In this document: positions 1 through 64,000 of the stretch, one piece after another
Layout: the number at the start of each line of letters is the position of its first letter
Numbering within the stretch: the stretch's first letter is position 1
Source of the DNA: a virus
IMG/VR virus record: IMGVR_UViG_3300021961_000023
Direction: 5' to 3' (one strand)
Length of the DNA stretch: 64,000 bases
Program-made: the position numbers and the translations under genes
The notes under the pieces: generated by a model
Database searches by the model: none
Told to the model about the DNA's origin: nothing
Seen by the model: only the letters and a program-made list of their open reading frames with translations

Positions 1-1
1 T

Positions 2-3000
2 ATTGGTCTGCAAAAAGATAACAATGCTTTTGTGAAGTATAATACAACCAATGGTTTATGGGAAGATCAGTTTGCAGCTGGAAACCAGAATCTATCGTCT
101 GATTCTAGAGCAAGATTTAAACCATCATATGAAAACTTCCACATTAAAGCAAGTAACAACGCATTCCTTCAGTTAGTTTCAATCTTCTCGATTGGATTTG
201 GAAAACATTATATTGCAGAAAGTGGTGGTGATATGTCAATCACCAACTCTAACTCTAACTTTGGTGCAATCGCACTTAACTCTAAAGGTTATCAGGAAAC
301 TGCTTTTGCAAGAGATGATGTAGGATATATTTCACATATCATTCCACCAAAAATGATTGAAGGTGGAGCAATCACTGTTGAATTTGATGCTATTGATATT
401 GGTGTAACAACAACTGCAGCTGCAGCAAGTAATCCAGGTATCGGTACAACCAGTCGTTTATATCTACTGAATAGAAAGAACATCAAGGATGCTCCAGATT
501 CTGTAATCGATGGATATAGAATCGGTACAAAGACAAATGACTATCTTAAGGTAAATCTTTCGATTGCTGGATTCACTACTGATCATTCGGCAAAAATCGT
601 GATGCCAGATACTCAAGATGATGCAGTTAAATGTTCTGGGGAAAAGTCATACAGAGTTCAAAGAACCAGTTCTGGTATTAGTAGTATCTCTACAAATATT
701 GTTACTCTTGAAACGGATCATCGTTTTATAAATGGAGAATCGATTCGTATTCTGAGTGATAACGGACATTTACCTGATGGTTTAGAACCAAATACAGTTT
801 ATAATGTCATTACAATCAGTCCATCAACTCCTCTGAATACAAAGCAAATCAAAATTGCACAGACATTCGGAGATGCAATCAATGATAATGCTCTTACCAT
901 CAACTCAAAAGGTGGTTATTTAAGAGTTGTCAGTCGTGTAAGTGATAAGAAAGCAGGAGATATTGGTCATCCAATACAATATGATACAAGTAGAGGTCAG
1001 TGGTACATTAACGTTTCTTCTGCTTCCACAGAAAACTCTATCTACACTAAGTTAGTTGGATTTGGTACAACCACATTTGGAACGGCGACTTCAAGAACTT
1101 ATATTGAAAGGCAAAATGATCCAAGAGCATTTGGAGATACTGTTTACAGAGTCAGATACATTTTACCAAAGGATTCATCAACAGTAGCAAGACCTCCAGT
1201 TGAAGGATTTGTATTACAGGAATCAAACTCAACTATTCCTTCATCCACCAACGAAATCCAGAAATATTTTAGTGGACCATCTTCTGTTAAAACTTTAACA
1301 AACTCTGCTGAACTCAGGATTCCACGATTTATTGCGGATGTTTCTTGGGTAGGAACTGCGGCAACATTTAGAACTGAACTTCCTCATGATTTAAGTATTG
1401 GCAATACCGTTGAAATCAAAAACGTAGTTAGTACAGCAAACACAACAGGTGCTGCTAAACTTGGTTTTAATGGTGAGTTCGTTGTAACTTCGATAAGAAG
1501 TAGAAAGGAGTTTACTGTAACTATTCCTACAGCACCTGGAACATTTACAAATGATACTTCTACCAGAAATACAAACTTACCATACTTCAGAAAGAAGAAG
1601 TATAACGGCACTTACGTTATTTACAGAACAAGAGAAATTCAAGAGTATGTACCACAAAAACAAGATGGTATCTATGATCTCTTGGTTATCAATGCAGATA
1701 ATACTCCTGTCGTAAGTCCATTTACATCACAACGTTATTCGCAACCAGTTGTTAATCTTTATCCTCAGGTTAACAGAGATAATCCAAAGTCAGATCCACC
1801 AGCAGCAGATTGCTTTGCATCTTCGGATATTATTGGTGAAGTTGTTATCAATGACCCACAAAATTCAATTACTGCAGAAACTCTTGGTAAAGGTCTGATT
1901 GATCAAGGAGTTGGTATTGGTATTTCTAATATTGTTTCAAACGCAACTGGAACTGCACATACCATTACAACCAGAATAGAGCATGGTTTTAATAGAGCAA
2001 CTAAACTTTCTGTTTCAACTCCTGGTGCTGGATATGGATCTGGTGGTTCTGGAAGAATCTACAATGCAAGACTTGAGGGAACATCATCTGCAGGAAAGAA
2101 TGCAACTGCAGTTATTACTGTAAATGCTTCTGGATCGATCACATCTGCAGAGATCATGGATGGAGGAAGTTCCTATAGTGTAGGTGATTCTCTTAATGTT
2201 GTAGGTGTTGGAACTACATCAGGATTTACTGTTGGTGTTGTAAGTGTAACTCAGATTTACAACAATCTAAATGAGGTAATCTCTTTACAAGGAATCACTG
2301 GTTCTAGAAATAATGAATACAATCAGCAGTATAGAGTTACTTCTATTGTTCCTGGTGATCCATATAGGATTCAAGTTGCAAGTGCATCTACAGTATCTGC
2401 TCCTTCAGTTGGATCAGCATCAGGTGTCGGTGCAACAGATGTAGCATCTGCATTTGTTTATACAGTTGGTAAAGGTATTCTTGTTAATACACTTTCCTAT
2501 AATCAGGGAACTGGTGTTGGTATCATCACATGTAGAGAAGCACATGGTTTCTTTGTAGATAATAAAGTTCGTATTGTTGGTGCAACAAACGACTTCTACA
2601 ACAGAGAATATGTAATCAAATCAGTTGGAACTACAACATCATTTACGATTGATATTGGTATTGGAACTGTTACACATCCCGCCTCTGGAACAATCTATGC
2701 ACTTCCTACAGGATTTAGTGCTCAGGGTGGAAACACAACAGATGATAATGAAAACACTGCAGGAAGAATGGTAGCAGCATATGCTGGTATTACCACAACA
2801 TTAATCAATATGGGCGCAAGTGGTTCAGCAGCATTGACAACAGATCAAATCGAAATCGACACTGATTATCTTGATATTAAGATTGGGGATTATCTACAAA
2901 TTGATGAGGAGATTGTAAGAGTTAAAGAAACTGTTACAAGTGATATTATTAAGGTATTCCGTGGTGTCATGGGAACCAGAAGAGCAGATCATGCTGCTGG

Positions 3001-3673
3001 TGCTGTTGTTAAGAGAATCTCTCCAAAACAGATTGAACTTAGAAGAAACTCTTATCTACGTGCATCTGGACATACTTTTGAATATCTTGGTTTTGGTCCT
3101 GGTAACTACTCGACTGCTCTACCACAACGTCAAGATAGAATCCTTTCTGGTTCTGAAGAGATTCTATCACAAGCACATAAAGAAGATGGTGGTGTAGTTG
3201 TCTACACTGGTATGAATAATGATGGTAGTTTCTATATCGGAAACAAGAAAGTCAGTTCTGCCACAGGAAAAGAAGCAACATTTGATGCTCCTATTCCTAC
3301 TGTTACAGGTGAAGAACTTGGTTCAAACCTAAACATTGGATTTGACGTTTTAACTCCTGTTGAAGCAACAATCACAAGAGGTATTCGTGTTGAAGGTGGT
3401 ATCGATCAGTCTGTAACTTCAAGATTTGATGGTCCAGTTGTGTTTAACAATAAGATTACATCAAACTCTGTAAAAGGCATTGAAGCACAATCTATCTACA
3501 TTCAAGGTGATAGTACTGTTTCTAGAAAGTATACGGTTGGTATTGCAACCCCATCTATTGCTGGAAATCCAGGTGATGTTGTATACAATGCAAATCCAAC
3601 AAATGGAGGAACAGTAGGTTGGATTTATACTATCAATAATGAATGGAAAACCTTTGGAAATATTAGCAGTTGA
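2..3673 (+). CDS. Large virion structural protein (cyanophage tail/baseplate-associated), 5'-truncated by the window edge
   Basis: The frame is open from base 2 (ATT GGT CTG CAA AAA GAT AAC AAT GCT TTT GTG), so the track start at 32 is internal. It is Ser/Thr/Gly-rich, with GxGY and EHGF/AHGF beta-module repeats and a C-terminal GWIYT..NEWK.FG typical of cyanophage structural proteins. Confidence 0.7.
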   Translation: MGLQKDNNAFVKYNTTNGLWEDQFAAGNQNLSSDSRARFKPSYENFHIKASNNAFLQLVSIFSIGFGKHYIAESGGDMSITNSNSNFGAIALNSKGYQETAFARDDVGYISHIIPPKMIEGGAITVEFDAIDIGVTTTAAAASNPGIGTTSRLYLLNRKNIKDAPDSVIDGYRIGTKTNDYLKVNLSIAGFTTDHSAKIVMPDTQDDAVKCSGEKSYRVQRTSSGISSISTNIVTLETDHRFINGESIRILSDNGHLPDGLEPNTVYNVITISPSTPLNTKQIKIAQTFGDAINDNALTINSKGGYLRVVSRVSDKKAGDIGHPIQYDTSRGQWYINVSSASTENSIYTKLVGFGTTTFGTATSRTYIERQNDPRAFGDTVYRVRYILPKDSSTVARPPVEGFVLQESNSTIPSSTNEIQKYFSGPSSVKTLTNSAELRIPRFIADVSWVGTAATFRTELPHDLSIGNTVEIKNVVSTANTTGAAKLGFNGEFVVTSIRSRKEFTVTIPTAPGTFTNDTSTRNTNLPYFRKKKYNGTYVIYRTREIQEYVPQKQDGIYDLLVINADNTPVVSPFTSQRYSQPVVNLYPQVNRDNPKSDPPAADCFASSDIIGEVVINDPQNSITAETLGKGLIDQGVGIGISNIVSNATGTAHTITTRIEHGFNRATKLSVSTPGAGYGSGGSGRIYNARLEGTSSAGKNATAVITVNASGSITSAEIMDGGSSYSVGDSLNVVGVGTTSGFTVGVVSVTQIYNNLNEVISLQGITGSRNNEYNQQYRVTSIVPGDPYRIQVASASTVSAPSVGSASGVGATDVASAFVYTVGKGILVNTLSYNQGTGVGIITCREAHGFFVDNKVRIVGATNDFYNREYVIKSVGTTTSFTIDIGIGTVTHPASGTIYALPTGFSAQGGNTTDDNENTAGRMVAAYAGITTTLINMGASGSAALTTDQIEIDTDYLDIKIGDYLQIDEEIVRVKETVTSDIIKVFRGVMGTRRADHAAGAVVKRISPKQIELRRNSYLRASGHTFEYLGFGPGNYSTALPQRQDRILSGSEEILSQAHKEDGGVVVYTGMNNDGSFYIGNKKVSSATGKEATFDAPIPTVTGEELGSNLNIGFDVLTPVEATITRGIRVEGGIDQSVTSRFDGPVVFNNKITSNSVKGIEAQSIYIQGDSTVSRKYTVGIATPSIAGNPGDVVYNANPTNGGTVGWIYTINNEWKTFGNISS

Positions 3674-3695
3674 TGTAGTCTTCAATCTAAATACT

Positions 3696-3703
3696 TATAA
3701 ATA
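3696..3703 (+). promoter_or_regulatory. T4-type late promoter TATAAATA
   Basis: Exact gp55-sigma consensus about 40 nt upstream of the ATG at 3743. Confidence 0.8.
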
Positions 3704-3742
3704 ATCCAGAGCAAAGTCCCTTTAAGAAGGCAAAGTAGCAAA

Positions 3743-4375
3743 ATGTCAGTATTACAAGTAGATACTATCAGAGATAGAAGTGGTAACGGTTCACCAACTC
3801 TTGACAAAGGTGTAGTCGTTTCTGGCGCTTCTACATTAGGTTATGTGAGAGTCATTCCTGGTAATCACGGTGCTGGTGGTATCATCACCGCGACTGCAGG
3901 TATCGTAACTTTCTACGGTGATGCTCAATACATGTCCAACGTAGGTCTTGCAGTTACCTACATTGATAATAATGTTACCATCGCTGGAACAATCACAGTT
4001 TCGGAACTGGTTCTAACTGGTGGTGGTGGAGTTGGTGGTGGTGCTGGAATCGCAGCATCAACTGTCAATATCTCTGGTATTTCTACTCTTAACGGAGTTC
4101 AGATTAACGCTGGTATTGTAACTGCTGCTCCTGGATCTGGATTCTCAACTGTCAGATATTATGGCGATGGTGCTGGTTTAACCAGACTGATGGCAGAGCA
4201 TCTTCTTGTTCATCGTAGACCTGCAACTAATAGATGGTCTCTCGGTCAGAACATTACTCAGATTGCACTTACCAACAATCCAGATACTCAAACTGGTACG
4301 TTCTCTGTAACCGCAAGAACTGGAATCGTAACAGTAGCATACGGAATGGCTGGACAACCACCTCTGTCTATCTGA
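3743..4375 (+). CDS. Tail fibre-associated structural protein; paralogue of 12362..13156
   Basis: Gly/Thr-rich. Shares YGD.QY..NVGLAVTYIDNNVTIAGTITV.ELVLTGGGGVGGGAGIAAST and HRRPAT.RWS.GQNIT with 12362..13156. Confidence 0.7.
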   Translation: MSVLQVDTIRDRSGNGSPTLDKGVVVSGASTLGYVRVIPGNHGAGGIITATAGIVTFYGDAQYMSNVGLAVTYIDNNVTIAGTITVSELVLTGGGGVGGGAGIAASTVNISGISTLNGVQINAGIVTAAPGSGFSTVRYYGDGAGLTRLMAEHLLVHRRPATNRWSLGQNITQIALTNNPDTQTGTFSVTARTGIVTVAYGMAGQPPLSI

Positions 4376-4438
4376 TAACCATTATATCATAAATAAAATT
4401 AATACCTAACGAGGGGATAGTGAACCTCAGGAGATCTA

Positions 4439-8179: not shown

Positions 8180-8180
8180 T

Positions 8181-10100: not shown

Positions 10101-10103
10101 ATA
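10096..10103 (+). promoter_or_regulatory. T4-type late promoter TATAAATA
   Basis: Exact consensus overlapping the protease stop codon, upstream of the ATG at 10119. Confidence 0.8.
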
Positions 10104-10118
10104 CCTCTAAAAAGACAG

Positions 10119-10454: not shown

Positions 10455-10483
10455 TAAATACCTAAAAGACATAGTAACTAAAA

Positions 10484-10915: not shown

Positions 10916-10952
10916 TTCTGTCCACGCTAAATAACTAGAAAGATAAAAGAAA

Positions 10953-12335
10953 ATGCCTACCGAAGTTCAATTTAGAAGAGGCACTACAGCTCAAAACAAC
11001 GCCTTCACTGGTGCTGCTGGTGAACTCTCAGTAAATATTACAAATAAATCGTTGAGAGTCCACGACGGATCTACCGCTGGTGGTTTTGAGTTAGCAAAAG
11101 CAGACCTCTCTAATACGACTGGTCTTGGCACAGTTTCAGCAGCTAATGTTGCTATTGGATCCACGATTGTTATTTCTGCTGGATTCCAACTTCAAAACAT
11201 TCAATCTCTTGACGCAACAACAACGGCAACGATTGAGAGTGCGGTTGCTGCTGCACCAAATAATTTTACGAGTCTCAATATTAGTGGAATCGGAACTATA
11301 GTTGAAAACTTCAATGTTGGAACTGGAGGAACAGTTCTTACAGCACTTTCTGGATCAGGTGTTGTAGGTGTCAATAGCACTGCTCCAACTGCTACTCTAG
11401 ATGTTGTAGGAACATCAAAGATTTCTGATACGATTACTATTGGATCAGCAACTACGATTGCAGCAAATAATCTTAAGGTAGGTCAAACTGTAGAAGTTAC
11501 TAGTAGTGCTCTTAAGTTTGCTGGTGTAGAAGTATTAAACACAACTGGTGTTTTCTTCCCAACTGGAATCATCACAGCACAAACATTTGTTGGTAATCTC
11601 ACTGGAGTTGCGTCTTCAGCAACCACATTACAAGCAACTTCTTCAGTTAATACAACTGGAATCATCACAGCATCACGATTCAGTGGAGAACTTGTAGGTG
11701 CAGCAGTCACTACAGTGGGTGGTTTGCACCAAAATACTGGCATTGCAACGATTGCTCAAGTTGTTGGCAATCTAACAGGATCTGTGAACTCTGGTCTTGC
11801 AACTGTTACTACTGTTCTTGGTGTAACTGGTATTACTACTTTAAGTGGTCCAGTTGCGATTGCAGGAGTTTCTACATTCTTCTCTAATGCAAGATTTGAA
11901 GACAATGTAAAAACAGTCTTTGGAAGTGGTGGTGACTTAGAAATCTATCATGATGGTAGCAACAGTTTTATTGCTGATGTTGGTGGCGGAAGTCTTCAAC
12001 TTAATGCAACACCAGATATTAGATTCTTAAACAACTCCACTGGCATTTCTACAGTTGGTGCTGGCGGTTTTGATATCGCTGGTGGTATTGCTCTTGGAGT
12101 TTCTGGTATTGCAACGATTCCTCAACTCAGAGTTGGCACTGCACTAACTGCAAATGCTTCTGGTATTCAGATTGCTGGAGGAACTAATATCGGATCTGCA
12201 TCTGGTATCATTACAGCACCTGGAGGATTTATCAGTGGTGTTGGTCAAACTTCGGCGGTTATGATTACTTTCTCAGGTAATCAGTTGACCTTTACTGTTG
12301 CTGGAGTTGGTTCAACAACTCTTGCTCTTGCCTGA
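10953..12335 (+). CDS. Tail fibre with an Mtd_N/hyaluronidase-type N-terminal anchor
   Basis: N-terminus QFRRGTTAQNNAFTGAAGEL...LRVHDGSTAGG; FG.GGDLEIYHDGSNSFI repeat. Confidence 0.8.
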   Translation: MPTEVQFRRGTTAQNNAFTGAAGELSVNITNKSLRVHDGSTAGGFELAKADLSNTTGLGTVSAANVAIGSTIVISAGFQLQNIQSLDATTTATIESAVAAAPNNFTSLNISGIGTIVENFNVGTGGTVLTALSGSGVVGVNSTAPTATLDVVGTSKISDTITIGSATTIAANNLKVGQTVEVTSSALKFAGVEVLNTTGVFFPTGIITAQTFVGNLTGVASSATTLQATSSVNTTGIITASRFSGELVGAAVTTVGGLHQNTGIATIAQVVGNLTGSVNSGLATVTTVLGVTGITTLSGPVAIAGVSTFFSNARFEDNVKTVFGSGGDLEIYHDGSNSFIADVGGGSLQLNATPDIRFLNNSTGISTVGAGGFDIAGGIALGVSGIATIPQLRVGTALTANASGIQIAGGTNIGSASGIITAPGGFISGVGQTSAVMITFSGNQLTFTVAGVGSTTLALA

Positions 12336-12361
12336 TAAGTAGTATCAAAGGTTCATAAGAA

Positions 12362-13156: not shown

Positions 13157-13231
13157 TAAGATAAATACCTTCATAACACAGAGGGATATATATTCCTCTT
13201 ATTGATGGTATATACCAGGGGTTCGTAGTAA

Positions 13232-17008: not shown

Positions 17009-17015
17009 AAAAAGT

Positions 17016-26189: not shown

Positions 26190-26248
26190 TATAAATAACT
26201 AGAAACAAAGACACAGGAAAAATGGCGGATCGTTATCCTTTAGTTGTA
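26190..26248 (+). repeat. Fibre-cassette leader copy 2
   Basis: TATAAATAACTAGAAACAAAGACACAGGAAAAATGGCGGATCGTTATCCTTTAGTTGT. Confidence 0.9.
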
Positions 26249-29870: not shown

Positions 29871-29932
29871 TATAAATAACTAAAAACAAAGACACAGGAA
29901 AAAATGGCTGATCGTTATCCTCTAGTTGTTGA
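29871..29932 (+). repeat. Fibre-cassette leader copy 3
   Basis: TATAAATAACTAAAAACAAAGACACAGGAAAAAATGGCTGATCGTTATCCTCTAGTTGT. Confidence 0.9.
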
Positions 29933-46809: not shown

Positions 46810-47054
46810 ATAATCTCGACGAGATCCACATGAATCCGCAGCACTATACTGCAATACATCTCGACTAGATTATGCAGCATATCGCAGCATTATACTGCAA
46901 TACTCGTTGCACTAGATCTCGACGAGACACAGTGACACACTGCACATGCTTCAACCACACGTTGCACTAGATCTCGACGACATATACAGCGTCATAATAT
47001 ACTGCAACGTATGGTTGGACTAGATGCATATATAATAGCGTCCAGATGTTACAC

Positions 47055-47083
47055 TTGACGCAGGACGCCATATCTGTTATCAT
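47055..47083 (+). promoter_or_regulatory. Sigma70 promoter for 47109..47279
   Basis: TTGACG-N17-TATCAT with a TG extension. Confidence 0.7.
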
Positions 47084-47108
47084 ACTTGTTGTATCGCACA
47101 GGTTTCCT

Positions 47109-47529
47109 ATGATCACGTATGCACAGAAGCAAAAGTATCGCATCACCCTGGAAGTCGAGGTGATGGATGACTTTGACCCCTATCAGATTGAGTGGAAAAA
47201 TGTACTTCTCCTGGAGGGAAATGAGTCCTGCCAGGCATATATTGAGGATCTTAGCAGAGTTGATGAACTTAAATGGTAACTTGTGCCAGTTGTTAAAGTG
47301 TCACAGAGGGGGTTGCAATGCCCCCTTTTTGATGCAATGATACACAAGTCGTCGAGATTGATGTAACTTGAAGAACTACCGAGTTCGTGTCGAAACTTAT
47401 GACGGTTGCGTGACGATTTGGCATGAAAAGTCTAAAGCAAAGACTGCTGACAAATTGATACTTAACCGTGTCTACAATCAACTCTGTGGTCTGAATATTA
47501 AAGAGATCGAAGTTACTCCTTCTGTCTGA
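47109..47529 (+). CDS. Two small early proteins (47109..47279; 47368..47529 with a TTG start, MKNYRVRVETYDG...)
   Basis: Each follows its own promoter; the second was translated by hand. Confidence 0.6.
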
Positions 47530-47557
47530 ACATTCTCTCGTTAACTAACACAAACTC

Positions 47558-47761
47558 ATGATGACTGATAATACTCTGGAACCCAAAGAACTTCTCGATC
47601 AGGTGTTAACTAAGATCGCACAAAAGTATGTCTTTGGTCTTGAAACTTTGGAGACTCAGAATAGTGATTCTGCAGACTTTTATGATGTCGCAGTGTGGCA
47701 GATTAGAGATGCTCTCAGGGATGCATTCGTGGCAGGAATGCATACAGGTATGACAATCTGA
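47558..47761 (+). CDS. DUF6900-like small protein
   Basis: IAQKY...ETLETQNSDSADFYDVAVWQIRDAL..AF.AG. Confidence 0.65.
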   Translation: MMTDNTLEPKELLDQVLTKIAQKYVFGLETLETQNSDSADFYDVAVWQIRDALRDAFVAGMHTGMTI

Positions 47762-47852
47762 GAACTGTCCACTAAATCCCCCAAAGCACCCGATGAGGTG
47801 CAATGATACATTTCGTCGGGCAAATCTCTACATTCCCCCCGATTTAAAGACA

Positions 47853-48898
47853 ATGCAACTCACTCAATCTTTCCCCCCCGTTGATGACATGATCACCAAA
47901 CTGCAGGAGATCGATTACAAGAAACACCTCAATAACTACATGGATTTTGTTGAGACTTTCGTGGTATACATTGCTGCGATTGCTACTGTTCTTTGGGAGA
48001 AGTTTCAAACCATGAAGATCACAACTCCTGATATCATTTCGGATTACTTCTATTTCAACTTTAACATGCGTGCTACATCTGGTGATGAAATCATCGGACT
48101 CAGTATTGGTAACCGTTACGTGGGATTGTATAGCGATTCCCTGAATTGGGGCATTCTTGATGAGAATGGGTGCCTCTGATTAATATTAATCTGTGCCAAT
48201 CTGAGAACTGGCACAAGGGGGGTTGTAATGCCCCCCGATCCGTGCAATACTAACAAAGTCAAGAAAGGACACGCAATGTTTGATGAACTTTGGTCTGAGA
48301 TTCAAGATGCGCCTGGTGAGATTTTTGATCTCGACATTCCAGAGATTGAAGATCAAGATAGTTTCAACATCAATGAGTATCTGAACGCTGATTATGATTA
48401 TTGATCTGATCGCATCTGTTGTCCTTCGTTATCACTTCCATCATGTTCACTTCTGAAGAACTTACCGCACTTCTTTCTTTGATTGAGTTTCATGATGATT
48501 GGGAAGAGGTGAGTGAAATCGTAGGTGCAGATGTTCCTGCATTGTATGAGAAACTTCACAACATGTTAGCATACGCTACTCAAGGGTGATGAATAACTTT
48601 ATCTTCGGAGTTGTTGCTGGCATTGTGTTAGCAACTGTTGGTTTCAATGGTATGGCACAGATGGGAAATCGTGCTGTGCAAGGTATTCAATCATTCGCCC
48701 AATCTTCTGCAAACTGACATGAACCGCACTGAACTTCAAGATCAACTCATTCAGCAAATGTTGGATGACATGGATCTCAAAACAATGACCCAACTTTGTT
48801 ATGATTATCTGGATGAGGGTTATGCTAAGTATTCTGATGAAGAATTGATCACTGAGTGTGAAGAATACTATCCCGAACTGCTAGAGGGTGACAGTTGA
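47853..48898 (+). CDS. Small early proteins (47853..48179, 48276..48404, about 48443..48590, about 48589..48717, 48719..48898)
   Basis: Hand-translated tandem ORFs, several of them highly acidic. Confidence 0.6.
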
Positions 48899-48953
48899 GG
48901 AACTGGCACAAGACCCCTTGATTTCTGCCTGAATCCGTGCCATCATACACAGT

Positions 48954-49850
48954 ATGCAAAACAAACACATCGAACACCCCGAAGATTCTATCCTTACGGG
49001 CGACCTTTCTGTTCTTGATTGGTTCATTCAACCTGGCAATCTTTCGGTAAAGATTGATGGTGCGCCTGCAATTGTGTGGGGTATTGATCCTGCCTGTGGT
49101 GAGTTCTTTGTAGGAACCAAAGCAGTCTTTAACAAGAAAAAGATTCGTATCGCTCACTCTCATGAAGAAATTGATGCGTTCTATCAAGGTGAGGTTGCGG
49201 TTATTCTGCATCGTTGCTTTGATTATCTTCCTCGCACCAATGGTATCTTTCAAGGTGACTTTATTGGTTTTGGCGGTTCTGATGAGTATTGCCCCAACAC
49301 GATTACTTACAAGTTTGGTGAGGTAGTTTCAGAGGAGATTATCGTTGCACCTCACACTTACTACATTGCAGAGAATGATCTGCGTGATGCTGTTGCGTAT
49401 CCGATGAAGTTTACCATCACGGATACTCCTTACGTGAAGTTTGTTCGTCCTGATGCTTACATCATGCACAATCAAGAATCGTTTGCTGATGTTAAAGAGG
49501 TGTGCGACTTTGCCCGTCAAATGTCTACCACTGCACACTTCGTAACTGATAAGGAAGCAGCAAAGATCAAGCAACAACTTAATGCCTGCATTCGTGCTGG
49601 TGAAGATCCTAACCCTAACGACTTTGAATGTGATCCTAACCTGATTCGTTTCTGGGCATTGGTTAAATCAATCAAAGATGATTGTTTGTTCCTGTGTCGC
49701 AATTGTGGTCCTGCTGCTTATCTTGGATACAACAGGATTGATGCAGAGGGTTATGTCCTCTCCAATGAGTTTGGCACGTTTAAGTTAGTCAATCGTGAGG
49801 TATTCTCTCACGCAAACTTTAACAATGGGCGGTTCCAGTGTGCCAGTTGA
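48954..49850 (+). CDS. DUF6267-like protein with ATP-dependent ligase (nucleotidyltransferase) motifs
   Basis: HIEHPED; SVKIDGAPA (KxDG); FQGDF; EGYVL; FKLVNR. Confidence 0.65.
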   Translation: MQNKHIEHPEDSILTGDLSVLDWFIQPGNLSVKIDGAPAIVWGIDPACGEFFVGTKAVFNKKKIRIAHSHEEIDAFYQGEVAVILHRCFDYLPRTNGIFQGDFIGFGGSDEYCPNTITYKFGEVVSEEIIVAPHTYYIAENDLRDAVAYPMKFTITDTPYVKFVRPDAYIMHNQESFADVKEVCDFARQMSTTAHFVTDKEAAKIKQQLNACIRAGEDPNPNDFECDPNLIRFWALVKSIKDDCLFLCRNCGPAAYLGYNRIDAEGYVLSNEFGTFKLVNREVFSHANFNNGRFQCAS

Positions 49851-49923
49851 GGTAGTGGCACAACCCCCCTTGTGATCCGCTGGGATCTGTGCAATACTTA
49901 AAGAGTCAAAGAAAGGCAACGCA

Positions 49924-50238
49924 ATGCGTAAGATCGAAAAGCAAATCATCGCTGCAATCAAAGAGAACAAAGATCTCAAGATTGCAAACTCTGAAGTGAT
50001 CTCTTGCTCTAACGTTTCTGATGTTTACCTGCACGGCAATTTGATTGCTCGCATTGGTGAAACTTGGATGGAACTGTTCGATGGTGGTTGGCGTTCGAAC
50101 ACCACCAAATCGCGTCTGAATGCTCTACTTTCTGCCTTCGGTATGGAAGGAGAGTATGTCTTCCAGAAGAACTTTCAGTGGTTCGTTAACTACAACGGTT
50201 CACCGATTCCGTTCTTCTCAGGTATGCGTCTGAACTGA
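49924..50238 (+). CDS. Conserved cyanophage early hypothetical protein
   Basis: VYLHGNLIA...GGW.SNTTKSRLNALL. Confidence 0.7.
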   Translation: MRKIEKQIIAAIKENKDLKIANSEVISCSNVSDVYLHGNLIARIGETWMELFDGGWRSNTTKSRLNALLSAFGMEGEYVFQKNFQWFVNYNGSPIPFFSGMRLN

Positions 50239-50265
50239 GTGGGGTTATCCCCCCACTCTTTTTTT
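50237..50265 (+). terminator. Rho-independent terminator
   Basis: GAGTGGGG-TTATCC-CCCCACTC followed by a T7 run. Confidence 0.85.
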
Positions 50266-50485
50266 GTCCTCATTCATTATACTCATGGCAACAACTTCTT
50301 TCGCTCACGGTGATTCCTACGGTGTGACCGATCATTATAATTTTGATGATCGTGACTTTGATGACTTTTACACTGCCGAAGATTATGATCAAAAAAGGGC
50401 AGAGAGGGACGGTTGGCGAACTGCCTACTGGGATGGTCGGTTCTGATCATTCTGTGCCTATAATACCTGAAGAACAAACAACCTC

Positions 50486-51031
50486 ATGGCACATCACAAC
50501 AACTTCAAAGGCGGAATTCAACCTGGCACTGTTGCGTTTGATGAGCAATCCCGTGCCATGGATGATAATGCAAAGTCTGCAATGATTCGTGTTGCTGACC
50601 TGCTGCAATCATCCTATCCTGAGTTAGTTGTACAATCGAAACTTGATCAGTCACAAATTCCTGGTGGCGTCGGTTCGTGTGCTCCTGACGGTGGAGTTTG
50701 GTTCTACAAAGGTCAACTGATTGCTGCCTTTGAGAGTAAGAAACAAGGTGCAAAAGGTAATGCAATCGAACGCTGGTTCAAGAACAATTTCATCGTTCGT
50801 GCTATCAATCCCTCTGCAACTTATGTCACGTTTGCATCAGGCGATGGCGTAGTTGCAGGCAATCCGATTCATCGAATCCTGCACATTGCACACCAAGGGT
50901 TATACGGTGTGATGAATGAAGTTCAGGTTGGCACTAACAATCTCCACTGTAAAGTTGAGGGGTTCAGTGTTGATGAGATGAGCAACATTATGATCGAAAC
51001 TCTCACAAACGTTCTGGAGTGTGCCAGTTGA
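50486..51031 (+). CDS. EcoRI/MunI-family type II restriction endonuclease-like protein
   Basis: PDGG...AFESKKQG...GNAIERWFKN...YVTF aligns by eye with EcoRI PDGG...AEAKHQG...GNAIERSHKN...YVLF. Confidence 0.8.
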   Translation: MAHHNNFKGGIQPGTVAFDEQSRAMDDNAKSAMIRVADLLQSSYPELVVQSKLDQSQIPGGVGSCAPDGGVWFYKGQLIAAFESKKQGAKGNAIERWFKNNFIVRAINPSATYVTFASGDGVVAGNPIHRILHIAHQGLYGVMNEVQVGTNNLHCKVEGFSVDEMSNIMIETLTNVLECAS

Positions 51032-51106
51032 CAAGGTGGCACAAACCCCCTTGTGGATCCCCTGAATCCGTGCAATACTAAAGCATACCAAACGAAACGA
51101 AACCAA

Positions 51107-52656
51107 ATGCGAATCGATGTCCGTTGCCCTGCTGCCCCTTGGGAGAATACTACAACCGACCTTGATAAAGCATACGATCTGGCATACGGTTTGAGTGAAG
51201 ATTACCAGTGCGACGTTGATCTCTATTACAACTCCACTGGCACTCTCTACACTACCGTTTCCAACTATTGATGACAACTGCACAAAAGATTGAACGGGCA
51301 TTCTTTCTACAACTGATTCGGGAGGTTGCTGAAGTCCAAGGCAAAAAACACCTCCCTAAAGTTTCTCCCAAAAAACACCAACTTCACTTCACCAAATGAC
51401 TGCAATCCTCATCGCTACGCTGACAATGAAACTCATTGGATTCAGTGAAGTTTCGCCTGGAATCTGTCAGGCAGACTATCTTGTGGATCGTGAAAGTGTC
51501 CGCTCTAAAATTGTATCTTGTGAATCTGTGCGCGATCCCCTGCCACTGTGACAGTCAGAAGGGTGTCCACTAAATCCCCCACGGCACCCCATCCTGTGCA
51601 ATACTTAAAGAGTCAAAGAAAGGCAATCGAATGAACTTCGAACACATCTACAGCATCACTGGCAAAGTTATGGTCAAAGATAACCAAACTGGCAAATCCT
51701 GGATGTCACTGGTGGAAGACAATGCGTTCCGCAGTGCAATCGAAGGACTCTATCAGTTCGTGATTGATAACAACGCCAACGCTGATATGGCATACGAATG
51801 GGTATGTGATCAGGCAGGCATTTCCTCCTTTGTCGTTGATACTCCCGCCTGGGATATGTTCTACAGTGTGTTCGATCAGGCACGCCCAGTTCCTTACTTT
51901 CAGTGTGCTCACGCCTGAGTTTCATTAACACTTTGTTCCCTACACTTTCTTCGATCATGGCACTCTACAGCATGGCAACCGATCTCAACACTAAGGAGAC
52001 GATTTGGGTTTCCACCAATGTAGTTAAGGGTCGCCCACAACTTAACTCACACCGTGATGATGATTTCGGTCGTTGTTACAAACGTGACGGCATTGATGGT
52101 TTCCCTGCGTGGGAGATTGCGGGTCTGCATAACAACTACTGACCCACTTCTGATTCACACTTAACCAACACAATCGTTTCCAAATGACTACCACTTTCCA
52201 ACGCAATGCTCTGGACATTTCCTACAACGGTTGGGAGAACTATGAGACCTGGAATGTAGCACTGTGGATCAACAATGATGAGAGTTTGTATCACCTTGCT
52301 CAAGAGTGTGGTGATTATGAAACTCTGGTAGATCGCCTCTACAATGATTATGGTGTGAAGCAAACAAAGGATGGCGTTAAGTTCAACGACCCCGCTGTAA
52401 ATGTCATCCAAATCAATAGCGATGTGTTCGACTTCTAAGTAACACTCAAGGGAATGAGATGCGCCCTACAAAGACACTCACCACCAAACAGTTTCTAACA
52501 CTTTCTACTCAAAATGACCAAAGATCTGTACCTCTCCCTTCTGCGTCAAGGTAACACTGGTGATGAGATTCTTTCGATTCTGGAAACTATCGTTGCTGGG
52601 GATGATAATGTCCCTGCTGCTGAAAATGGTCCTACGATGAACACTATCGACTTCTG
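51107..52656 (+). CDS. Small early proteins (51107..51271, 51396..51551, 51631..51918, 51957..52142, 52184..52438, 52514..52656)
   Basis: Tandem ORFs; 52184..52438 carries the widespread phage motif YNGW.NYETWNVALWI.NDE.LY. Confidence 0.65.
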
Positions 52657-52666
52657 AGTTAGATAC

Positions 52667-52860
52667 ACGAATGTCCGTGATTCGTCAGTCACGGATATTC
52701 GTATTCGGCAGTTAATGCCGCCGATTGTTTATAACGTCGGCGGGCGTTGCGGGTTATAAGCCCCCCCCCTTAATTAAAAAGGTAAACTACCCTAACCTAC
52801 AGAGGTGACAAATCGACCTCTCAATATCTCATAAGAAAAAAATTTCCCCAGAAAATTTCA
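52667..52860. other. Non-coding hairpin cluster at the early/structural boundary
   Basis: CGAATGTCCGTGA/TCACGGATATTCG; CGCCGA/TCGGCG; GGG-TTATAA-GCCC with a C9 run; AGAGGT/ACCTCT; A-tracts. Confidence 0.7.
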
Positions 52861-52903
52861 GACTCTCCAAGGTCGCATAGATACTAGAGAGTGAACGAAA
52901 CAT

Positions 52904-53071
52904 ATGAAACACACCGTGTATCACGTCTATCACTCAAAAGAAGTCATCGCCCACAGTTTGTCAAAAGAAGAGTTAATCCGCAAGATTATTGAAGATGAGA
53001 TCAAGCCGAATAAGCACGAGATTCTCATGTTGACGACAGATTTAGAGAGGGGAACCGAACAATCATATTAG
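52904..53071 (+). CDS. Small hypothetical protein
   Basis: MKHTVYHVYHSKEVIAHSLSKEE...EQSY*, 55 aa, hand-translated. Confidence 0.55.
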   Translation: MKHTVYHVYHSKEVIAHSLSKEELIRKIIEDEIKPNKHEILMLTTDLERGTEQSY

Positions 53072-53072
53072 G

Positions 53073-53101
53073 TTGACAATGACTAGATAAACAGTTAGAC
53101 T
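53073..53101 (+). promoter_or_regulatory. Sigma70 promoter
   Basis: TTGACA-N17-TAGACT. Confidence 0.7.
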
Positions 53102-53123
53102 TGAACTGAAAAATAACAAAGTT

Positions 53124-53918
53124 ATGGCAAAAGGATTTAAAGTAAAAACAGCACAAGTACAGCAACAAGATGGTCTCGATTGGGACTATGATGCTATCAA
53201 AGAGCGTATGCGTGGTAAGAGCATTGTCTTTTGCCTACCTGGTCGAGGATGCTCTTACATTTTTCTGAAGAACTTTGTTCAACTGTGTTTTGACATGGTT
53301 CAGAACCAGATGAACATTCAGATCTCTCAAGATTATTCTTCGATGGTGAACTTTGCACGTTGTAAGTGTTTGGGTGCAAATGTTCTCCGTGGTCCCGATC
53401 AGATTCCCTGGGATGGTAAACTGCAATATGATTACCAACTCTGGATTGATAACGATATTGTTTTCAACACTGAGAAGTTCTGGCAACTGTGTGATCTCGC
53501 AGTTCCTGGTCCTGACAAAGACGGTAATCCTCAAGATGAGCGTATGATCGCAGCAGGTTGGTATGCCACCGAAGACGGACATACTACCAGCGTCGCACAC
53601 TGGCTCGATGAAGAAGACTTCCGTAAGAACGGTGGTGTGATGAATCATGAGACCGTAGAGACCATGAGTAAGCGTCGTAAACCCTTTACTGTGGACTATA
53701 CTGGTTTCGGTTGGGTCATGATCAAGAACGGTGTCTTTGAGCACCCTGAGATGAAGTATCCCTGGTTCGCTCCTCAGATGCAAACCTTTGAGGACGGTAA
53801 AGTTCAGGATATGTGTGGTGAAGACGTATCATTCTGTCTTGATGCAAAGGCAGCAGGCATTGTGACCTGGTGTGATCCTCGGATCCGCGTGGGTCACGAA
53901 AAGACTCGTATTATTTGA
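53124..53918 (+). CDS. Conserved cyanophage GT-A fold glycosyltransferase-like protein
   Basis: VNFAR, LWIDNDIVF (DxD), YTGFGW, GEDVSFC, RVGHEK. Confidence 0.75.
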   Translation: MAKGFKVKTAQVQQQDGLDWDYDAIKERMRGKSIVFCLPGRGCSYIFLKNFVQLCFDMVQNQMNIQISQDYSSMVNFARCKCLGANVLRGPDQIPWDGKLQYDYQLWIDNDIVFNTEKFWQLCDLAVPGPDKDGNPQDERMIAAGWYATEDGHTTSVAHWLDEEDFRKNGGVMNHETVETMSKRRKPFTVDYTGFGWVMIKNGVFEHPEMKYPWFAPQMQTFEDGKVQDMCGEDVSFCLDAKAAGIVTWCDPRIRVGHEKTRII

Positions 53919-53932
53919 TCTAGGAGATTATT

Positions 53933-54076
53933 ATGGCAAGACCCAAAGGCAGTTTGACCTCTAAGATTCATATCGAAGGGAAACCTAAGAAGACTCGTCA
54001 AGGTCGTTCACAAAATACGAAACTCTCTGCGAGCTCCCGTAACTCGGCTCGTAAAAGGTACAGAGGACAAGGTTAA
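53933..54076 (+). CDS. Small basic protein ending RKRYRGQG
   Basis: AGGAG SD; 47 aa and K/R-rich; below the track cutoff. Confidence 0.7.
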   Translation: MARPKGSLTSKIHIEGKPKKTRQGRSQNTKLSASSRNSARKRYRGQG

Positions 54077-54125
54077 ATAGTTAATGAAGCATGTAGAAAT
54101 ACATGCTTTTTTCATGGGAACTTAT

Positions 54126-54824
54126 ATGGCATATCTGAATCACAACCTACCAACATTTACTTGTTACATTCGTAATGAGTTTTTATACAATCATAAAAAA
54201 GGGCATGGGGAGGTCACTTTATGCGATGTTCACTCTGTTGCCTCCTTAGAGAAGCACGTACCCCTCTTTGAGACCTTTTTAGAGAATGGGGTCAACTGGA
54301 CACGAAGACCGATTCATGCGTTCTGCTGGAAACCTGATGCACCTGTACCAGAGTTAGAAGAGTGTATGTGGTGGGATTGCTTTTCTCCTTATATTGATGT
54401 TCAAGTTCGCTCAAGAATGGCTAACTTACGTGCCGAACTGATTAACTACAAAGGAGAAAAAAATGAGGGTACATATATGTTCACTCTTGATTGGTCATGG
54501 GAATCAAAATCAACCCTGAATACCAATTTTAGTGAGACTCCAGAACATAAATGTGCTCATTTTTTCAAGATGGACAATGGAAACTTCTATGCATACCCTA
54601 ATAATAAAATATTATGGTATGATGATGCATGGACACGCAATAGAATTACCAAAAATCCAGGATACGAAATCGATCTAACCGAATATTCCGTTGAAAATCG
54701 TCGAAAAATTGAGACCTCTGACGATTTTATGTACGAAATTGCTAAAATTCGGGATAGCAACCCCGTAAAAAGTTCTGATTTTAACGAATCAGGAGCAAAA
54801 ACCAATGGCGAACAGTCCAGTTGA
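54126..54824 (+). CDS. Conserved phage hypothetical protein
   Basis: MAYLNHNLP...RRPIHAF...WDCFS...YMFTLDW...EHKCAH...GNFYAYPNN. Confidence 0.72.
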   Translation: MAYLNHNLPTFTCYIRNEFLYNHKKGHGEVTLCDVHSVASLEKHVPLFETFLENGVNWTRRPIHAFCWKPDAPVPELEECMWWDCFSPYIDVQVRSRMANLRAELINYKGEKNEGTYMFTLDWSWESKSTLNTNFSETPEHKCAHFFKMDNGNFYAYPNNKILWYDDAWTRNRITKNPGYEIDLTEYSVENRRKIETSDDFMYEIAKIRDSNPVKSSDFNESGAKTNGEQSS

Positions 54825-55011
54825 CAAAAGTAACGACTTTATTCAGTCAGGAATGACACTGATTACCGAAATTTCTTCGGAAAAATACCTAAAAAAGGTA
54901 AAAAAGAGTGGAAAATCGCTCTCTAAGTATGAACTACCAAATGATCGATATTCAAGACCCTGTGGTGGAGCAGGAGGATTCGATGATTTCGTTGAGAGGT
55001 GGCATGAATAG
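54805..55011 (+). CDS. Small hypothetical protein
   Basis: AGGAG SD inside a hairpin. Confidence 0.6.
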   Translation: MANSPVDKSNDFIQSGMTLITEISSEKYLKKVKKSGKSLSKYELPNDRYSRPCGGAGGFDDFVERWHE

Positions 55012-55059
55012 GTTAAAAATACCTTCTAAATAAGGTAGAATCATAGTATACATTTATAA

Positions 55060-55461
55060 ATGCCTCTAGAAGGAGTCAGTCGCGGGTTTAAAGACATCAG
55101 TTTTTCGTTTACATCACATCCCCTCACTGGAGATTTGATCACTCTTTCTAATGAGAATGCAATTGCTCGTTCTTTACGCAATTTGGTTCTGACTGGATTC
55201 ACTGAGAGACTGTTTAATCAAGATCTTGGTTGCGATGTTAAACAGTCTCTTTTTGAAAACATTGACTTAGCAACGGGTTCAATCATTGAAACGCACATAA
55301 GAGCGACTATTCAAAACTATGAACCCAGAGTGAGAATCATCAAGGTTATTGCTGAACCTGATGTTGATAACAATAGTTTTGTTGTTACACTTCGTTATCA
55401 AATTGTGGGACTATCTCAAGTTACTCAAGAAATCAACTTTGTATTAGAATCGGGTCGATAA
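55060..55461 (+). CDS. gp25: Baseplate wedge subunit gp25
   Basis: FKDIS..F..HP.TGD...NENAIARSLRNLVLT...ER.F...G...I.NYEPRV. Confidence 0.9.
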   Translation: MPLEGVSRGFKDISFSFTSHPLTGDLITLSNENAIARSLRNLVLTGFTERLFNQDLGCDVKQSLFENIDLATGSIIETHIRATIQNYEPRVRIIKVIAEPDVDNNSFVVTLRYQIVGLSQVTQEINFVLESGR

Positions 55462-57369: not shown

Positions 57370-57375
57370 AATAAA

Positions 57376-63300: not shown

Positions 63301-64000
63301 GGTTCGATTGATTACCCTGCTTTTGAACTTAACTTCTATAAAGATTCTAACTTCAGAAACAAGTTTGTTTCTTCAGGATCATCTCCAACGTTTGAAATTA
63401 GATCTACAGGAACTGTTGGAACATCTGGAGCAAAGGTAACTGTAAGTGTATCCAATTCACTTCCTAAGAACTTCTATTATAAGTTAGATCCAGTAGATCT
63501 ATTAAACGTTCCAGAGAACAAGAAAAATATTATAGTTGATGAGGAAAATATACCAAATCATAATAGTATTATTGTAACAACCAGCGTCTATAGTGGCAAT
63601 CATAGAATAACTGGTATTGGATCAACTTCTATTCAATATAATGTATTATTAAAACCAGAAAGAGTAAGTTATAACACTTCTGAGGCAACTCTTTCATATA
63701 ATACAAACTCTGTTAGAGCTATAGGTTCAATCAACGAGATTGACATTAGAAGTCGCGGTAAAAAATACCAAATTTTACCAGCAATAACCAGCGTTGCTTC
63801 TACTTGGGGAAGAGGTGCAGTTTTAGAACCATTAAGCACTAATATTGGTAAGGTCAAGAAAAAGTGCTTATCAAATATTGGATTTGATTATCCATCAGAT
63901 TATACATTAAGACCATCAGCAATTGTTCCTCAGGTTTTAAAACTTGATCCATTAACTACTATAGAAAAAATAGGCATTAGTTCTAATGGAAATGGATACT
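57376..64000 (+). CDS. gp7: Giant baseplate wedge protein (gp7-like, over 2200 aa) with a YHYH-type domain; 3'-truncated
   Basis: The ATG at 57376 gives MVNRVKISSIVEGQLPEFVREDFPLVAEFLQEYY. The same frame encodes HSPIIGWAYDGNPIYGPYGY (61051) and GFDYPSDYTLRP (about 63880). It is absent from the track, consistent with no stop before the window end, and follows gp6. Confidence 0.8.
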   Translation, partial: MVNRVKISSIVEGQLPEFVREDFPLVAEFLQEYYRSLEHQGGTLDVLQNIDQYVKLEELTNLTEESTLTSDVSYVDTDITVDSTLGFPDTYGLIQIDSEIITYTGKTATSFTGCLRGFSGISSFKSQNKPDTLVFSKTSVGSHTSGTKVKNLSILFLKEFLRKIKTQITPGFEERELYTGLDQKLFLKQSKNFYESKGADESFEILFRALYGVDVEVLKPRDYLFEPSDAQYRVTKDLVVEPIYGDPLDLVNRTLFQDETDDFNQARGSITKVEKLTKNSKDYYKISLDSDYDKDINVFGSIFGNFQVHPKTRVITAVSAGATTLDVDSTVGFPTSGTLVVTSAQGVENYINYSSKTLNQFFDCQGTPDILSETDVRFDVYAYGYSGVGTDNPVHVRIGAVLSDLEFLDAPYGLHEADTIKIKALGSSLTDKKSNNWIFNIPSVFDIKTVELVDTSDYTYRFTTFDRLTLYDGDSVNVLASNGVSFAAQVTSIENESTFQVRIGTGINEGLSYKVYKNLTKVNSTNFPRANRNNANVQNVYTDLKNSLYVASPSLPAYFRQELKVRDRSITFSGVFTNNQSINVGFHGLYTGDSVVYIPGSDSNKLNIDAGVYFVKKISDNEISLYRSRANIFNNVYIPITGNVTNNKFELFALSGQTLETQKLIRKFSEPENGSITYDTKPGQIGMLVNGVEILNYKSSDSIFYGPIESIIATSGGDGYDVINPPILGITDPVGTGATGICAVEGSFEDILVVDGGFDYVGTPVISIIGGGGQGATAKADMVTLKHVNNFNAFGEALEVNLVSNTIGFSSFHKFRNGEAVVYSTGGASNVGGISTDAWYYVNTVSDSSVQLHNTYEDAIAGINTINLTSYGSGTHSLTAVKRKRTINSVKVTNPGSGYKTRQVSVMPSYVNVASNIINFNDHGYNDGEIVVYTATSTPITGLTSGSSYYVTRVNDDQFRLSVVGVGSTVAKDFYYTTNQFVDLKSQGSGVHNFNYEPIRVIVSGNIGVTTFSGQDFNAVLQPIVRGKITGVSLTDSGVGYGSSEIIGDNRQPTFTLNRGSGALLEPVVINGTIVEVIVRSGGSGYNSPPKLNVLGDGQGAELVPVIKNGAISSVFIANSGYNYTNSKTSIDIIPAGSGASFQANIKTWVINLFERYLQNGIITDDDGILVEGLNPTYGLQYTHLYSPRKLRQNVYREVTRLNKQVFVPDLIIDPVSKTERESLNHSPIIGWAYDGNPIYGPYGYDTPQGGIVRALRSGYERITAANRPPFSQGFFIDDFVFNGTGDLDEHNGRFCITPEYPNGTYAYFTTISPDSVESSGPFLGYKLPQFPYFIGNTYRSVPIDFNFKKESNQDEFDLVSANLSRNITPYNLTSQTQDYPYVLNPNKIQNHDSEIESVINGYIEDIKITKRGVDYKVGDSIIFDNTGTSGYGAAAKVSRVDGVTVSGVRVSSTQLTNIEFSQSGETGTLIGFAPQPHNLKNNDEVSISGLSTTNTGLQRFFSIGVPQNTLVLRSGIGTTGATGIVTYISVSGSLSYPDIAVNDVYDIENEKVRVLSIDESGSRIRVERQYGNTSGAAHTASSFAYEDSRKFFVNVGYSQNLDLAPNKEIYFNPVESIAVSGVGATDFVSVVGVATTSKVVVSFANPGSGVTSVVLSAKQIYLPNHGLKTNDQLIYKTNGGDPIRVSLAITEQFDTGYAVGINTFTLSNNTVVYAAKISNDIIGIATNPIVPDNGNPGSFVGIGSTTNGLLYFENIGTGVKHSFETNYLNTLSGLVNRNVVTVSTASTHNLIANDTISVNVFPGITTSIKLIYNDEQKRVLGNKVSFAKTSVDLLSNVITVPNHGFVTGQKVLYESALSSADRVITSNTSVDVPTIFPSPLEVETPYTLLATENGVIIVDAESIPDNSLFYVVVLDYNRIQLAPTYHDATKANPTVIDMVSNTYGSVAPVNPPIALIKNQIVEFDLSDSSLSYRRGSIDYPAFELNFYKDSNFRNKFVSSGSSPTFEIRSTGTVGTSGAKVTVSVSNSLPKNFYYKLDPVDLLNVPENKKNIIVDEENIPNHNSIIVTTSVYSGNHRITGIGSTSIQYNVLLKPERVSYNTSEATLSYNTNSVRAIGSINEIDIRSRGKKYQILPAITSVASTWGRGAVLEPLSTNIGKVKKKCLSNIGFDYPSDYTLRPSAIVPQVLKLDPLTTIEKIGISSNGNGY

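Follow-up and report, generated by a model that had tools for sequence, protein, structure and literature searches.

The DNA analysed here, 64,000 nucleotides of viral sequence (positions 1 to 64,000 of IMG/VR record IMGVR_UViG_3300021961_000023, GC content 38.6%; referred to throughout as the window), raises the question of why a phage genome should have rid itself of most copies of the tetranucleotide AATT and whether the agent responsible is an enzyme of the host or one that the phage itself encodes. A reading made from the sequence alone had proposed that AATT is avoided along the whole window and that the avoidance was imposed by a nuclease recognizing an AATT core, supplied by the host or by a phage gene at position 50486. 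We consider it probable that an EcoRI-like, AATT-reading nuclease of the phage itself, encoded by the open reading frame (ORF) at 50486 to 51031, selected for the depletion and that a partner methyltransferase of the Dam fold, encoded at 32496 to 33356, protects the genome incompletely.

The depletion is real and extreme. Across positions 1 to 64000 there are 121 AATT sites against 568 expected from base composition, an observed-to-expected ratio of 0.21 and thus a 4- to 5-fold deficit; an order-2 Markov model predicts 426 sites (ratio, 0.28; z = -20.3), which makes AATT the lowest of all 256 tetramers, while TTAA occurs 363 times (0.64 by composition and 0.94 by the Markov model). When codons were shuffled synonymously inside each of the 95 ORFs of the + strand (200 shuffles), AATT did not return to a normal frequency: coding sequence contains 108 sites, compared with 472 +/- 15 after shuffling (ratio, 0.23; z = -24.5), again the lowest value for any tetramer. 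About four-fifths of AATT sites have been removed from this phage genome by codon rewriting. The avoidance postulated by the sequence-only reading therefore holds by composition, Markov, and codon-shuffle counts, and the hand counts on which it was founded were close to exact: 6 AATT in positions 1 to 3660, as stated; 24 TTAA in positions 1 to 4000, where about 23 had been given for positions 1 to 3660; none in the AT-rich gene at 31213 to 31860; 7, for an estimate of about 6, in 27933 to 29861; and 12 in 47040 to 52660. GATC, described as plentiful, occurs 320 times (1.43 by composition).

The same reading had asked which longer words might contain the avoided core. Each of the ten NAATTN classes is depleted under codon shuffling (0.06 to 0.49), and none is responsible on its own; GAATTC, TAATTA, and TAATTG are the lowest and AAATTG/CAATTT the highest, and maximal-order Markov models revealed no 5- or 6-mer signal on top of that of the tetramer. 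Since all contexts are depleted and no longer word adds a signal, the target is the 4-base core and not GAATTC, CAATTG, or RAATTY alone. Depletion extends through coding and noncoding DNA over the whole window, and an assembly artifact was ruled out because the genomes of cultured phages and numerous independent metagenomes show the same pattern.

The window carries all of its large ORFs on the + strand and contains markers of T4-like myoviruses, namely, the gp25, gp6, and gp7 baseplate genes, a UvsW-like helicase, and several fiber proteins with endosialidase-chaperone domains. Its gp6 is 57% identical to those of Synechococcus phages B23, Bellamy, and S-SM2, about 56% identical to that of Prochlorococcus phage P-TIM68, and 74 to 87% identical to those of the nearest IMG/VR contigs. 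A megablast search with 8 kb of the window against 50,697 phage records gave no match, so the window does not belong to a sequenced isolate. By gene content and tblastn matches to the Kyanoviridae, it is a T4-like, uncultured cyanomyovirus within or neighboring the Kyanoviridae, a phage that infects marine or freshwater cyanobacteria.

The + strand ORF at 50486 to 51031 encodes a compact protein of 181 amino acids (PHROG 2400) that motifs, a PDB profile search, and Foldseek place among the EcoRI-family PD-(D/E)XK nucleases; it is predicted to be AATT specific and is the candidate selective agent. Its sequence includes APDGGVW and, farther on, FESKKQG-AK-GNAIERW. Single-sequence searches of the window protein against NCBIfam and, with phmmer, against the PDB yielded no matches, and the EcoRI identity emerged only from the family profile and the fold search. 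Among 5.8 billion proteins searched, 151 homologues were found, nearly all of them metagenomic and unnamed, some with precomputed, mostly faint matches to the Pfam EcoRI family (PF02963). In an alignment of 32 homologues, P67, D68, E83 and K85 (as E83-S-K85), Q87, and the run G91-N-A-I-E-R-W97 are invariant, and the motifs are intact in all 92 loci that we found to carry the gene. A search of the PDB with the profile of these 32 sequences returned EcoRI only (E = 8e-5), in a colinear alignment that takes in the N-terminal helix, PDGG...EAKHQG, and GNAIER (EcoRI 137 to 172). It aligns the catalytic PD..ExK with EcoRI D91/E111/K113 and brings Q87, N92, A93, E95, and R96 into correspondence with EcoRI Gln115, Asn141, Ala142, Glu144, and Arg145. 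With an AF2 model of the nuclease (pLDDT, 86.7; pTM, 0.83), the top five Foldseek matches were all EcoRI chains (E = 1e-6 to 1e-5; TM-score [query], 0.66 to 0.69), and the next match had an E value of 0.014. The AATT-core nuclease that had been proposed from the letters alone is thus borne out in fold and motifs by profile, alignment, and structural search.

In EcoRI, the inner A:T pairs of AATT form bonds with Arg145 and with the Asn141/Ala142 main chain, Ala142 wedges the central AT step open, and the arms of the enzyme touch only the backbone outside the recognition site; EcoRI, MunI, and the AATT cutter MluCI have been placed in one group (PMC4081073). Gln115 is tied to the inner thymidine by a study in the reference list of the same paper. 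The inner arm of EcoRI, about 22 residues between KHQG and GNAIER, corresponds to 3 residues in the phage nuclease, the C-terminal third of which is also much shorter, and this reduction of the arm would fit a loss of outer-base reading and a shortening of the site to AATT. As judged from alignment and model, the ORF encodes a predicted EcoRI-fold nuclease that keeps the catalytic center and all residues that read the inner AATT, and the enzyme would be expected to cut unmodified AATT.

The family is found almost only in viruses. A pattern scan of 185,579 prokaryote species, represented by one genome each, located a single cellular homologue, on a 2.9-kb contig of a metagenome-assembled genome, and this near-absence from cellular genomes makes a host origin of the nuclease unlikely. 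An exhaustive profile search gathered about 355 family clusters at 50% identity, mostly of 160 to 230 amino acids and unnamed; PHROG 2400 is listed as being of unknown function, and the record of phage S-CREM2 labels its own copy "restriction endonuclease EcoRI." Two loci, L099 (7216 to 8538) and L100 (2087 to 3409), contain a 245-amino-acid homologue with a Cys-rich C-terminal extension that adjoins an MT-A70 methylase. A Tara Oceans contig with the 245-amino-acid homologue has a GC content of 27%, contains genes for chlorophyll a/b-binding protein, fatty-acid desaturase, glucose-6-phosphate dehydrogenase, and ribonucleotide reductase, and resembles an algal virus. A promoter scan 5' of the window's nuclease gene gave results at chance level; TATAAT is located about 22 nucleotides ahead of the ATG.

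The presumed partner, encoded on the + strand at 32496 to 33356, is a Dam-family (D12 class) N6-adenine DNA methyltransferase, identified through PF02086 (E = 7e-30), TIGR00571 (130.6 bits against a cutoff of 114.85), and its orthology to nuclease-linked methylases of relatives (56 to 65% identity); it is predicted to be non-GATC and possibly AATT specific. The SAM-binding FxGxG and the catalytic DPPY are intact, and DPPY is present in 68 of 70 nuclease-linked methylases, the other two being cut by the contig end. Relatives of this methylase, 44 to 70% identical to it, overlap or abut the nuclease gene by 3 to 24 bp in about 40 loci and lie one gene downstream of it in about 15 more, S-RIM2 among them, and the methylase is thus, by gene order and homology, the usual operon partner of the nuclease in related phages; in the subclade of the window and in G004 (IMGVR_UViG_3300042453_001086), the two genes are 17 to 18 kb apart. 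Among cultured phages, close homologues (60 to 63%) occur only in the nuclease-carrying S-RIM2/S-BM1 records. In S-RIM2-type phages (L083, 20620 to 21675; L093, 976 to 2019), a gene of about 350 codons with a weak DUF6551 match is located between nuclease and methylase; it has either been inserted into the operon or forms a third component of it.

In E. coli Dam, K9 and R124 are reported by Horton and colleagues (2006) to read the G:C pairs of GATC. The window methylase has I6 at the K9 position and Q134 at the R124 position, and the E. coli Dam equivalog model gives it 47 bits against a cutoff of 441. Among the 70 linked methylases, the K9 position is occupied by Ile or Met in 65, by Val or Thr in 2, and by Lys in 2, with 1 unreadable, while the R124 position is Gln in all 69 that are readable. 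Specificity for AATT would be likely by analogy with the operon logic of type II systems.

If the nuclease is the selective agent, depletion should follow its gene, and it does so, though unevenly, across lineages. We scanned IMG/VR with the nuclease alignment, which gave 80 loci, and pooled all loci of at least 4 kb, 176 in total, of which 92 carry the gene and 84 are without a detected nuclease. The median observed-to-expected ratio for AATT is 0.31 (0.44 by the Markov model) in carriers and 1.05 (0.97) in the others (Mann-Whitney P = 1e-20, a value that overstates independence, given the shared ancestry of the loci). Depletion in the absence of a detected nuclease was seen solely in L005 to L014, which are short contigs from the window's own clade and break off ahead of the position of the gene. 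Around gp6, the ratio is 0.18 to 0.30 in L007 to L015, the contigs nearest to the window in depletion, about 0.5 in the group with 87% identity (L003 to L006), and about 1.0 in B23, in Bellamy, and in some 65 cyanomyovirus contigs that are more distantly related; such patchiness among relatives marks the trait as lineage specific and not family-wide. Nuclease-free relatives are therefore not equally depleted, and the link to the phage's own gene that the sequence-only reading had raised survived this comparison.

Cultured phages and complete genomes sharpen the association. Among the 50,697 phage records, the nuclease is confined to S-RIM2 (dozens of isolates; locus L083, 19989 to 20528), S-BM1, and S-CREM2, and whole-genome profile searches likewise recovered it from S-RIM2 and S-CREM2 but not from S-PM2, ACG-2014f, or S-H34. 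The full genome of S-RIM2 has 246 AATT sites against 1,227 by composition (0.20) or 795 by the Markov model (z = -25.7, lowest tetramer), whereas the nuclease-free S-PM2 and S-SCSM1, which share the laboratory host Synechococcus WH7803, both have a ratio of 1.04; the nuclease-free Bellamy, B23, S-SM2, P-TIM68, and S-SSM7 range from 0.62 to 1.23. The complete 190-kb genome of G004 has 186 sites against 1,559 expected (z = -38.9), and its nuclease is 84% identical to that of the window while its gp6 is only 41% identical, from which it follows that the nuclease gene has moved horizontally among divergent cyanomyoviruses. Two further records with an intact nuclease (IMGVR 3300021960_000030 and 3300033273_000208), G001 (111,864 bases, 599 sites expected) and G002 (73,883 bases, 402 expected), the gp6 proteins of which are about 34% identical to that of the window, contain no AATT at all. 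Neither contains a D12 methylase or an ORF of at least 80 codons with the amino-methyltransferase motif [DNS]PP[YFWH], an absence that is provisional, as the records are 63% and 41% complete. Of the two possible sources of selection named at the outset, the same-host controls and the 176 loci favor the phage's own nuclease over a host enzyme; the stronger argument lies in these controls and in the repetition of the pattern on backbones with 34 to 57% gp6 identity, and not in the P value.

One gene allows the purge to be followed codon by codon. The + strand ORF at 54084 to 54824 (PHROG 3704) has ten homologues in AATT-normal phages, with 83 to 87% nucleotide and 91 to 95% protein identity, that contain 7 to 12 AATT at conserved positions; five remain in the window copy, and at ten homologous positions the site has been abolished by a synonymous change: GAA-TTT>GAG-TTT, AAT-TGG>AAC-TGG, CCA-ATT>CCG-ATT, GAA-TTA>GAG-TTA, AAT-TTA>AAC-TTA, GAA-TTG>GAA-CTG, AAT-TAT>AAC-TAC, AAT-TTC>AAC-TTC, and GAA-ATT>GAA-ATC and >GAA-ATA. 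Three of the four surviving sites downstream in this gene are AAATT, the context that depletion has affected least in the window, G004, and S-RIM2; in all three, TAATTA is the most depleted (0.01 to 0.06) and AAATTG/AAATTT are the commonest survivors. That separate lineages hold a flank preference in common suggests a single selective agent. We considered a recent import of the gene's 3' part, but it finds no support, as nucleotide identity is uniform along the gene. The gene groups with a clade other than that of its neighbors (91 to 95% versus 31 to 35% protein identity). It belongs to a + strand subregion, 48954 to 55461, that also includes the nuclease gene and gp25 and in which depletion, according to the per-gene codon-shuffle table, is at about half strength (18 AATT between 48.9 and 55.5 kb against about 32 expected); the genes of this subregion have mosaic relationships, with different relatives for different genes.

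From these data we infer cleavage and methylation at AATT, a biological target, and an order of events as follows. The nuclease would probably serve to shred the DNA of the host, of coinfecting phages, or of both. The phage's own DNA may be protected in two ways: by the Dam-fold methyltransferase, which is without both guanine-reading residues of the GATC-specific Dam, and by the purging of AATT through synonymous and other tolerated substitutions, presumably needed since the methylation of fast-replicating DNA would be incomplete. A possible sequence is the gain of a nuclease-methylase pair, then the purge, and then the loss of the methylase in some site-free lineages. We put forward more tentatively, and would not yet wager on, a broader proposal in which a virus-restricted family of miniature EcoRI enzymes is a weapon of lytic cyanophages against host chromosomes and AATT-rich rivals and sets genomes on a repeatable course, operon gain being followed by progressive silent purging and, once no AATT remains, by methylase loss, and in which rivals respond with methylase-only genes and partial purging, as ACG-2014f may have done.

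A number of observations weigh against selection by the phage's own nuclease. The window protein matches no Pfam family, PF02963 included, at an E value of 0.01 or lower, and cleavage by the nuclease and methylation by its partner at AATT are both deduced from homology and linkage. As a marker of AATT specificity, Gln at the R124 position was set aside, since methylases of nuclease-free phages have it too; of the two changes with respect to Dam, that at the K9 position alone is, among the sequences compared, specific to the subfamily. Selection on sites should be weak where a protective methylase is present, and in G001 and G002 the methylase could be located off the contig. Within the window, depletion is at its weakest in the nuclease gene and its neighbors, the gene having 3 AATT sites where 2.9 are expected. 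Even with intact motifs, carriers have observed-to-expected ratios anywhere between 0 and about 0.95; scarcely any depletion is seen in L175, in L182, and in the L097/L165/L167 subfamily, and none in the algal-virus-like contig with nuclease and MT-A70 methylase. Dead nucleases were rejected as the reason for weak depletion, as motifs are kept in all carriers, and inspection of the locus table revealed no clear trend for depletion to scale with nuclease-methylase distance. S-CREM2, a carrier, is weakly depleted by the Markov model (0.67), near the nuclease-free S-H34 (0.78), and we have downgraded it as a clear third cultured case. The nuclease-free ACG-2014f (W01, KJ019144.1) is moderately depleted, with 480 sites against 806 by the Markov model (0.60; z = -14.8); its D12 methylase is of the S-CREM2 type, and the phage may once have carried the nuclease or may be a rival that guards itself against phages that cut AATT. 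These misfits are compatible with differences in acquisition time and methylase efficiency, with horizontal gene movement, and with the nucleases of other phages, and they are proof of none of these.

AATT is not the only word avoided by these phages. CCGG is absent from the window (31 to 88 expected) and, irrespective of the nuclease, from many cyanomyoviruses: 0/344 in S-RIM2, 0/310 in G001, 0/295 in G004, and 0/65 in 50 kb of S-PM2. Its absence was noted for L083, L085, L086, L088, L089, G001, G002, and G004; it is present in Bellamy, B23, S-SM2, S-CREM2, ACG-2014f, and S-H34. The absence of CCGG is a second, independent signal of site avoidance. RGCY, the CviJI site, is also rare in the window (AGCT, 38; GGCT, 15; AGCC, 9; GGCC, 11; pooled ratio, 0.12), while TGCT, AGCA, and GGCA are enriched; its depletion is near-universal in cyanomyovirus relatives L002 to L082 (0.04 to 0.5) but is not seen in B23 (0.86) or in L094 and L097, carrier contigs that are not Kyanoviridae-like. 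Across lineages, neither RGCY depletion nor CCGG absence is related to the AATT pattern. GGTACC, GTGCAC, and TGCGCA are missing from the window, where maximal-order Markov models predict about 3 to 8 of each per strand, and GTAC has a ratio of 0.55.

These additional signals bear on the possibility that a host AATT restriction-modification system of the Tsp509I/MluCI kind is the selective agent and that the phage gene is incidental or a later arrival. Palindrome depletion in phages is, in the textbook view, caused by avoidance that host enzymes drive, and the lack of CCGG and scarcity of RGCY and GTAC, seen in relatives regardless of the nuclease, suggest that other, possibly host-driven avoidance does operate in this phage family. 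We nevertheless regard a host system as unlikely to be the source of AATT depletion: on WH7803, S-RIM2 is depleted while S-PM2 and S-SCSM1 are not; depletion follows the phage gene across backbones with 34 to 41% gp6 identity; nuclease-free relatives with 60 to 66% gp6 identity are normal; and no host enzyme was identified. Defense against the AATT nucleases of coinfecting phages, with the phage's own copy gained later by a purged genome that could afford it, would explain the depletion of ACG-2014f, which has only a related methylase, and would sit well with a nuclease that moves between divergent backbones and is located in the least purged region of the window. We judge it to be quite unlikely, as most sampled nuclease-free cyanomyoviruses are undepleted despite sharing hosts and waters with carriers; it would still require the same AATT specificity and differs mainly in the order of events.

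Causes that involve no nuclease, whether codon or codon-pair usage, mutational bias, or avoidance of bent, A-tract-like DNA, can draw on the fact that composition overstates depletion in relatives of higher GC content and that AT-rich words, TATA among them, are likewise scarce in S-CREM2 and S-H34. Depletion persists, however, under order-2 Markov models and codon-preserving shuffles and extends to noncoding DNA, while TTAA, ATAT, and TATA are near their Markov expectations and sister lineages of similar GC content and codon usage are normal; bias would not be expected to leave 112 kb without a single AATT or to produce targeted synonymous changes. Compositional and codon causes are essentially excluded, and selection by the phage-encoded nuclease is the reading that we carry forward.

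Among the other features of the window, three successive fiber-like ORFs (26222 to 27598, 27933 to 29861, and 29904 to 31172) each end in a C-terminal endosialidase-chaperone (Peptidase_S74) domain, and the ORF at 10953 to 12335 starts with the N-terminal domain of a major tropism determinant. A search for tRNA genes in the window found none.

Cyanomyoviruses are a major cause of death among the chief photosynthetic bacteria of the ocean, and the ways in which the T4-like members dispose of host DNA or exclude rivals are poorly understood. Selection by a phage-encoded AATT cutter, with self-protection through site loss, would, if true, provide a concrete mechanism that can be tested in culture, as both S-RIM2 and WH7803 are cultured; it would also give a function to a PHROG of unknown function and offer enzymology a minimal EcoRI scaffold of 180 residues together with a Dam-fold methylase of new specificity. 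Site avoidance in phages could then report their own arsenal rather than that of the host, and k-mer-based prediction of virus hosts may be misled by virus-encoded nucleases. Were the weapon proposal also true, tetranucleotide content would be a readout of phage-phage warfare in the ocean. Our literature searches found no paper connecting cyanophages, AATT avoidance, and an EcoRI-like nuclease, and the paper on S-CREM2 does not discuss the nuclease gene. Restriction-modification, site avoidance, and phage nucleases directed against host DNA are known kinds of phenomena; what appears to be new is a virus-restricted miniature EcoRI with a Dam-fold partner and self-purging that proceeds to complete site loss.

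Comparison with established systems brings out both sides of this picture. The phage nuclease resembles the EcoRI/RsrI/MunI/MluCI group of type IIP enzymes (PD-(D/E)XK, alpha branch) in fold and in its PD..E-x-K, K-x-Q-G, and GNAIER motifs, but it has 181 residues where EcoRI has 277, is almost virus only, and is missed in its window form by the Pfam EcoRI model. Its linked methylase is of the Dam fold (D12), whereas EcoRI's own partner is an M.EcoRI-type methylase. As in other instances of restriction-site avoidance by phages, a short palindrome has been lost at the DNA level through synonymous changes, leaving a codon-shuffle deficit; here, in contrast to the usual case, the best candidate enzyme is phage encoded, and depletion follows the gene and not the laboratory host. 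T4 breaks down host DNA with EndoII and EndoIV and protects itself with hydroxymethylcytosine, and the present phage would likewise be a lytic, T4-like virus with nucleases against ordinary DNA and insensitive DNA of its own; its insensitivity, however, would come from site loss and adenine methylation rather than base replacement, and its nuclease would be type II-like and sequence specific. The chlorella viruses offer another parallel, as they encode R.CviJI and R.CviAII with cognate methylases, pairs thought to degrade host DNA while methylation protects that of the virus; they too are lytic viruses with a nuclease-methylase pair, and one homologue of the phage nuclease adjoins an MT-A70 methylase in an algal-virus-like contig. 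We know of no genome-wide purge of a nuclease site in chlorella viruses, whereas the cyanophages have purged their sites, and some genomes have none left and, apparently, no methylase.

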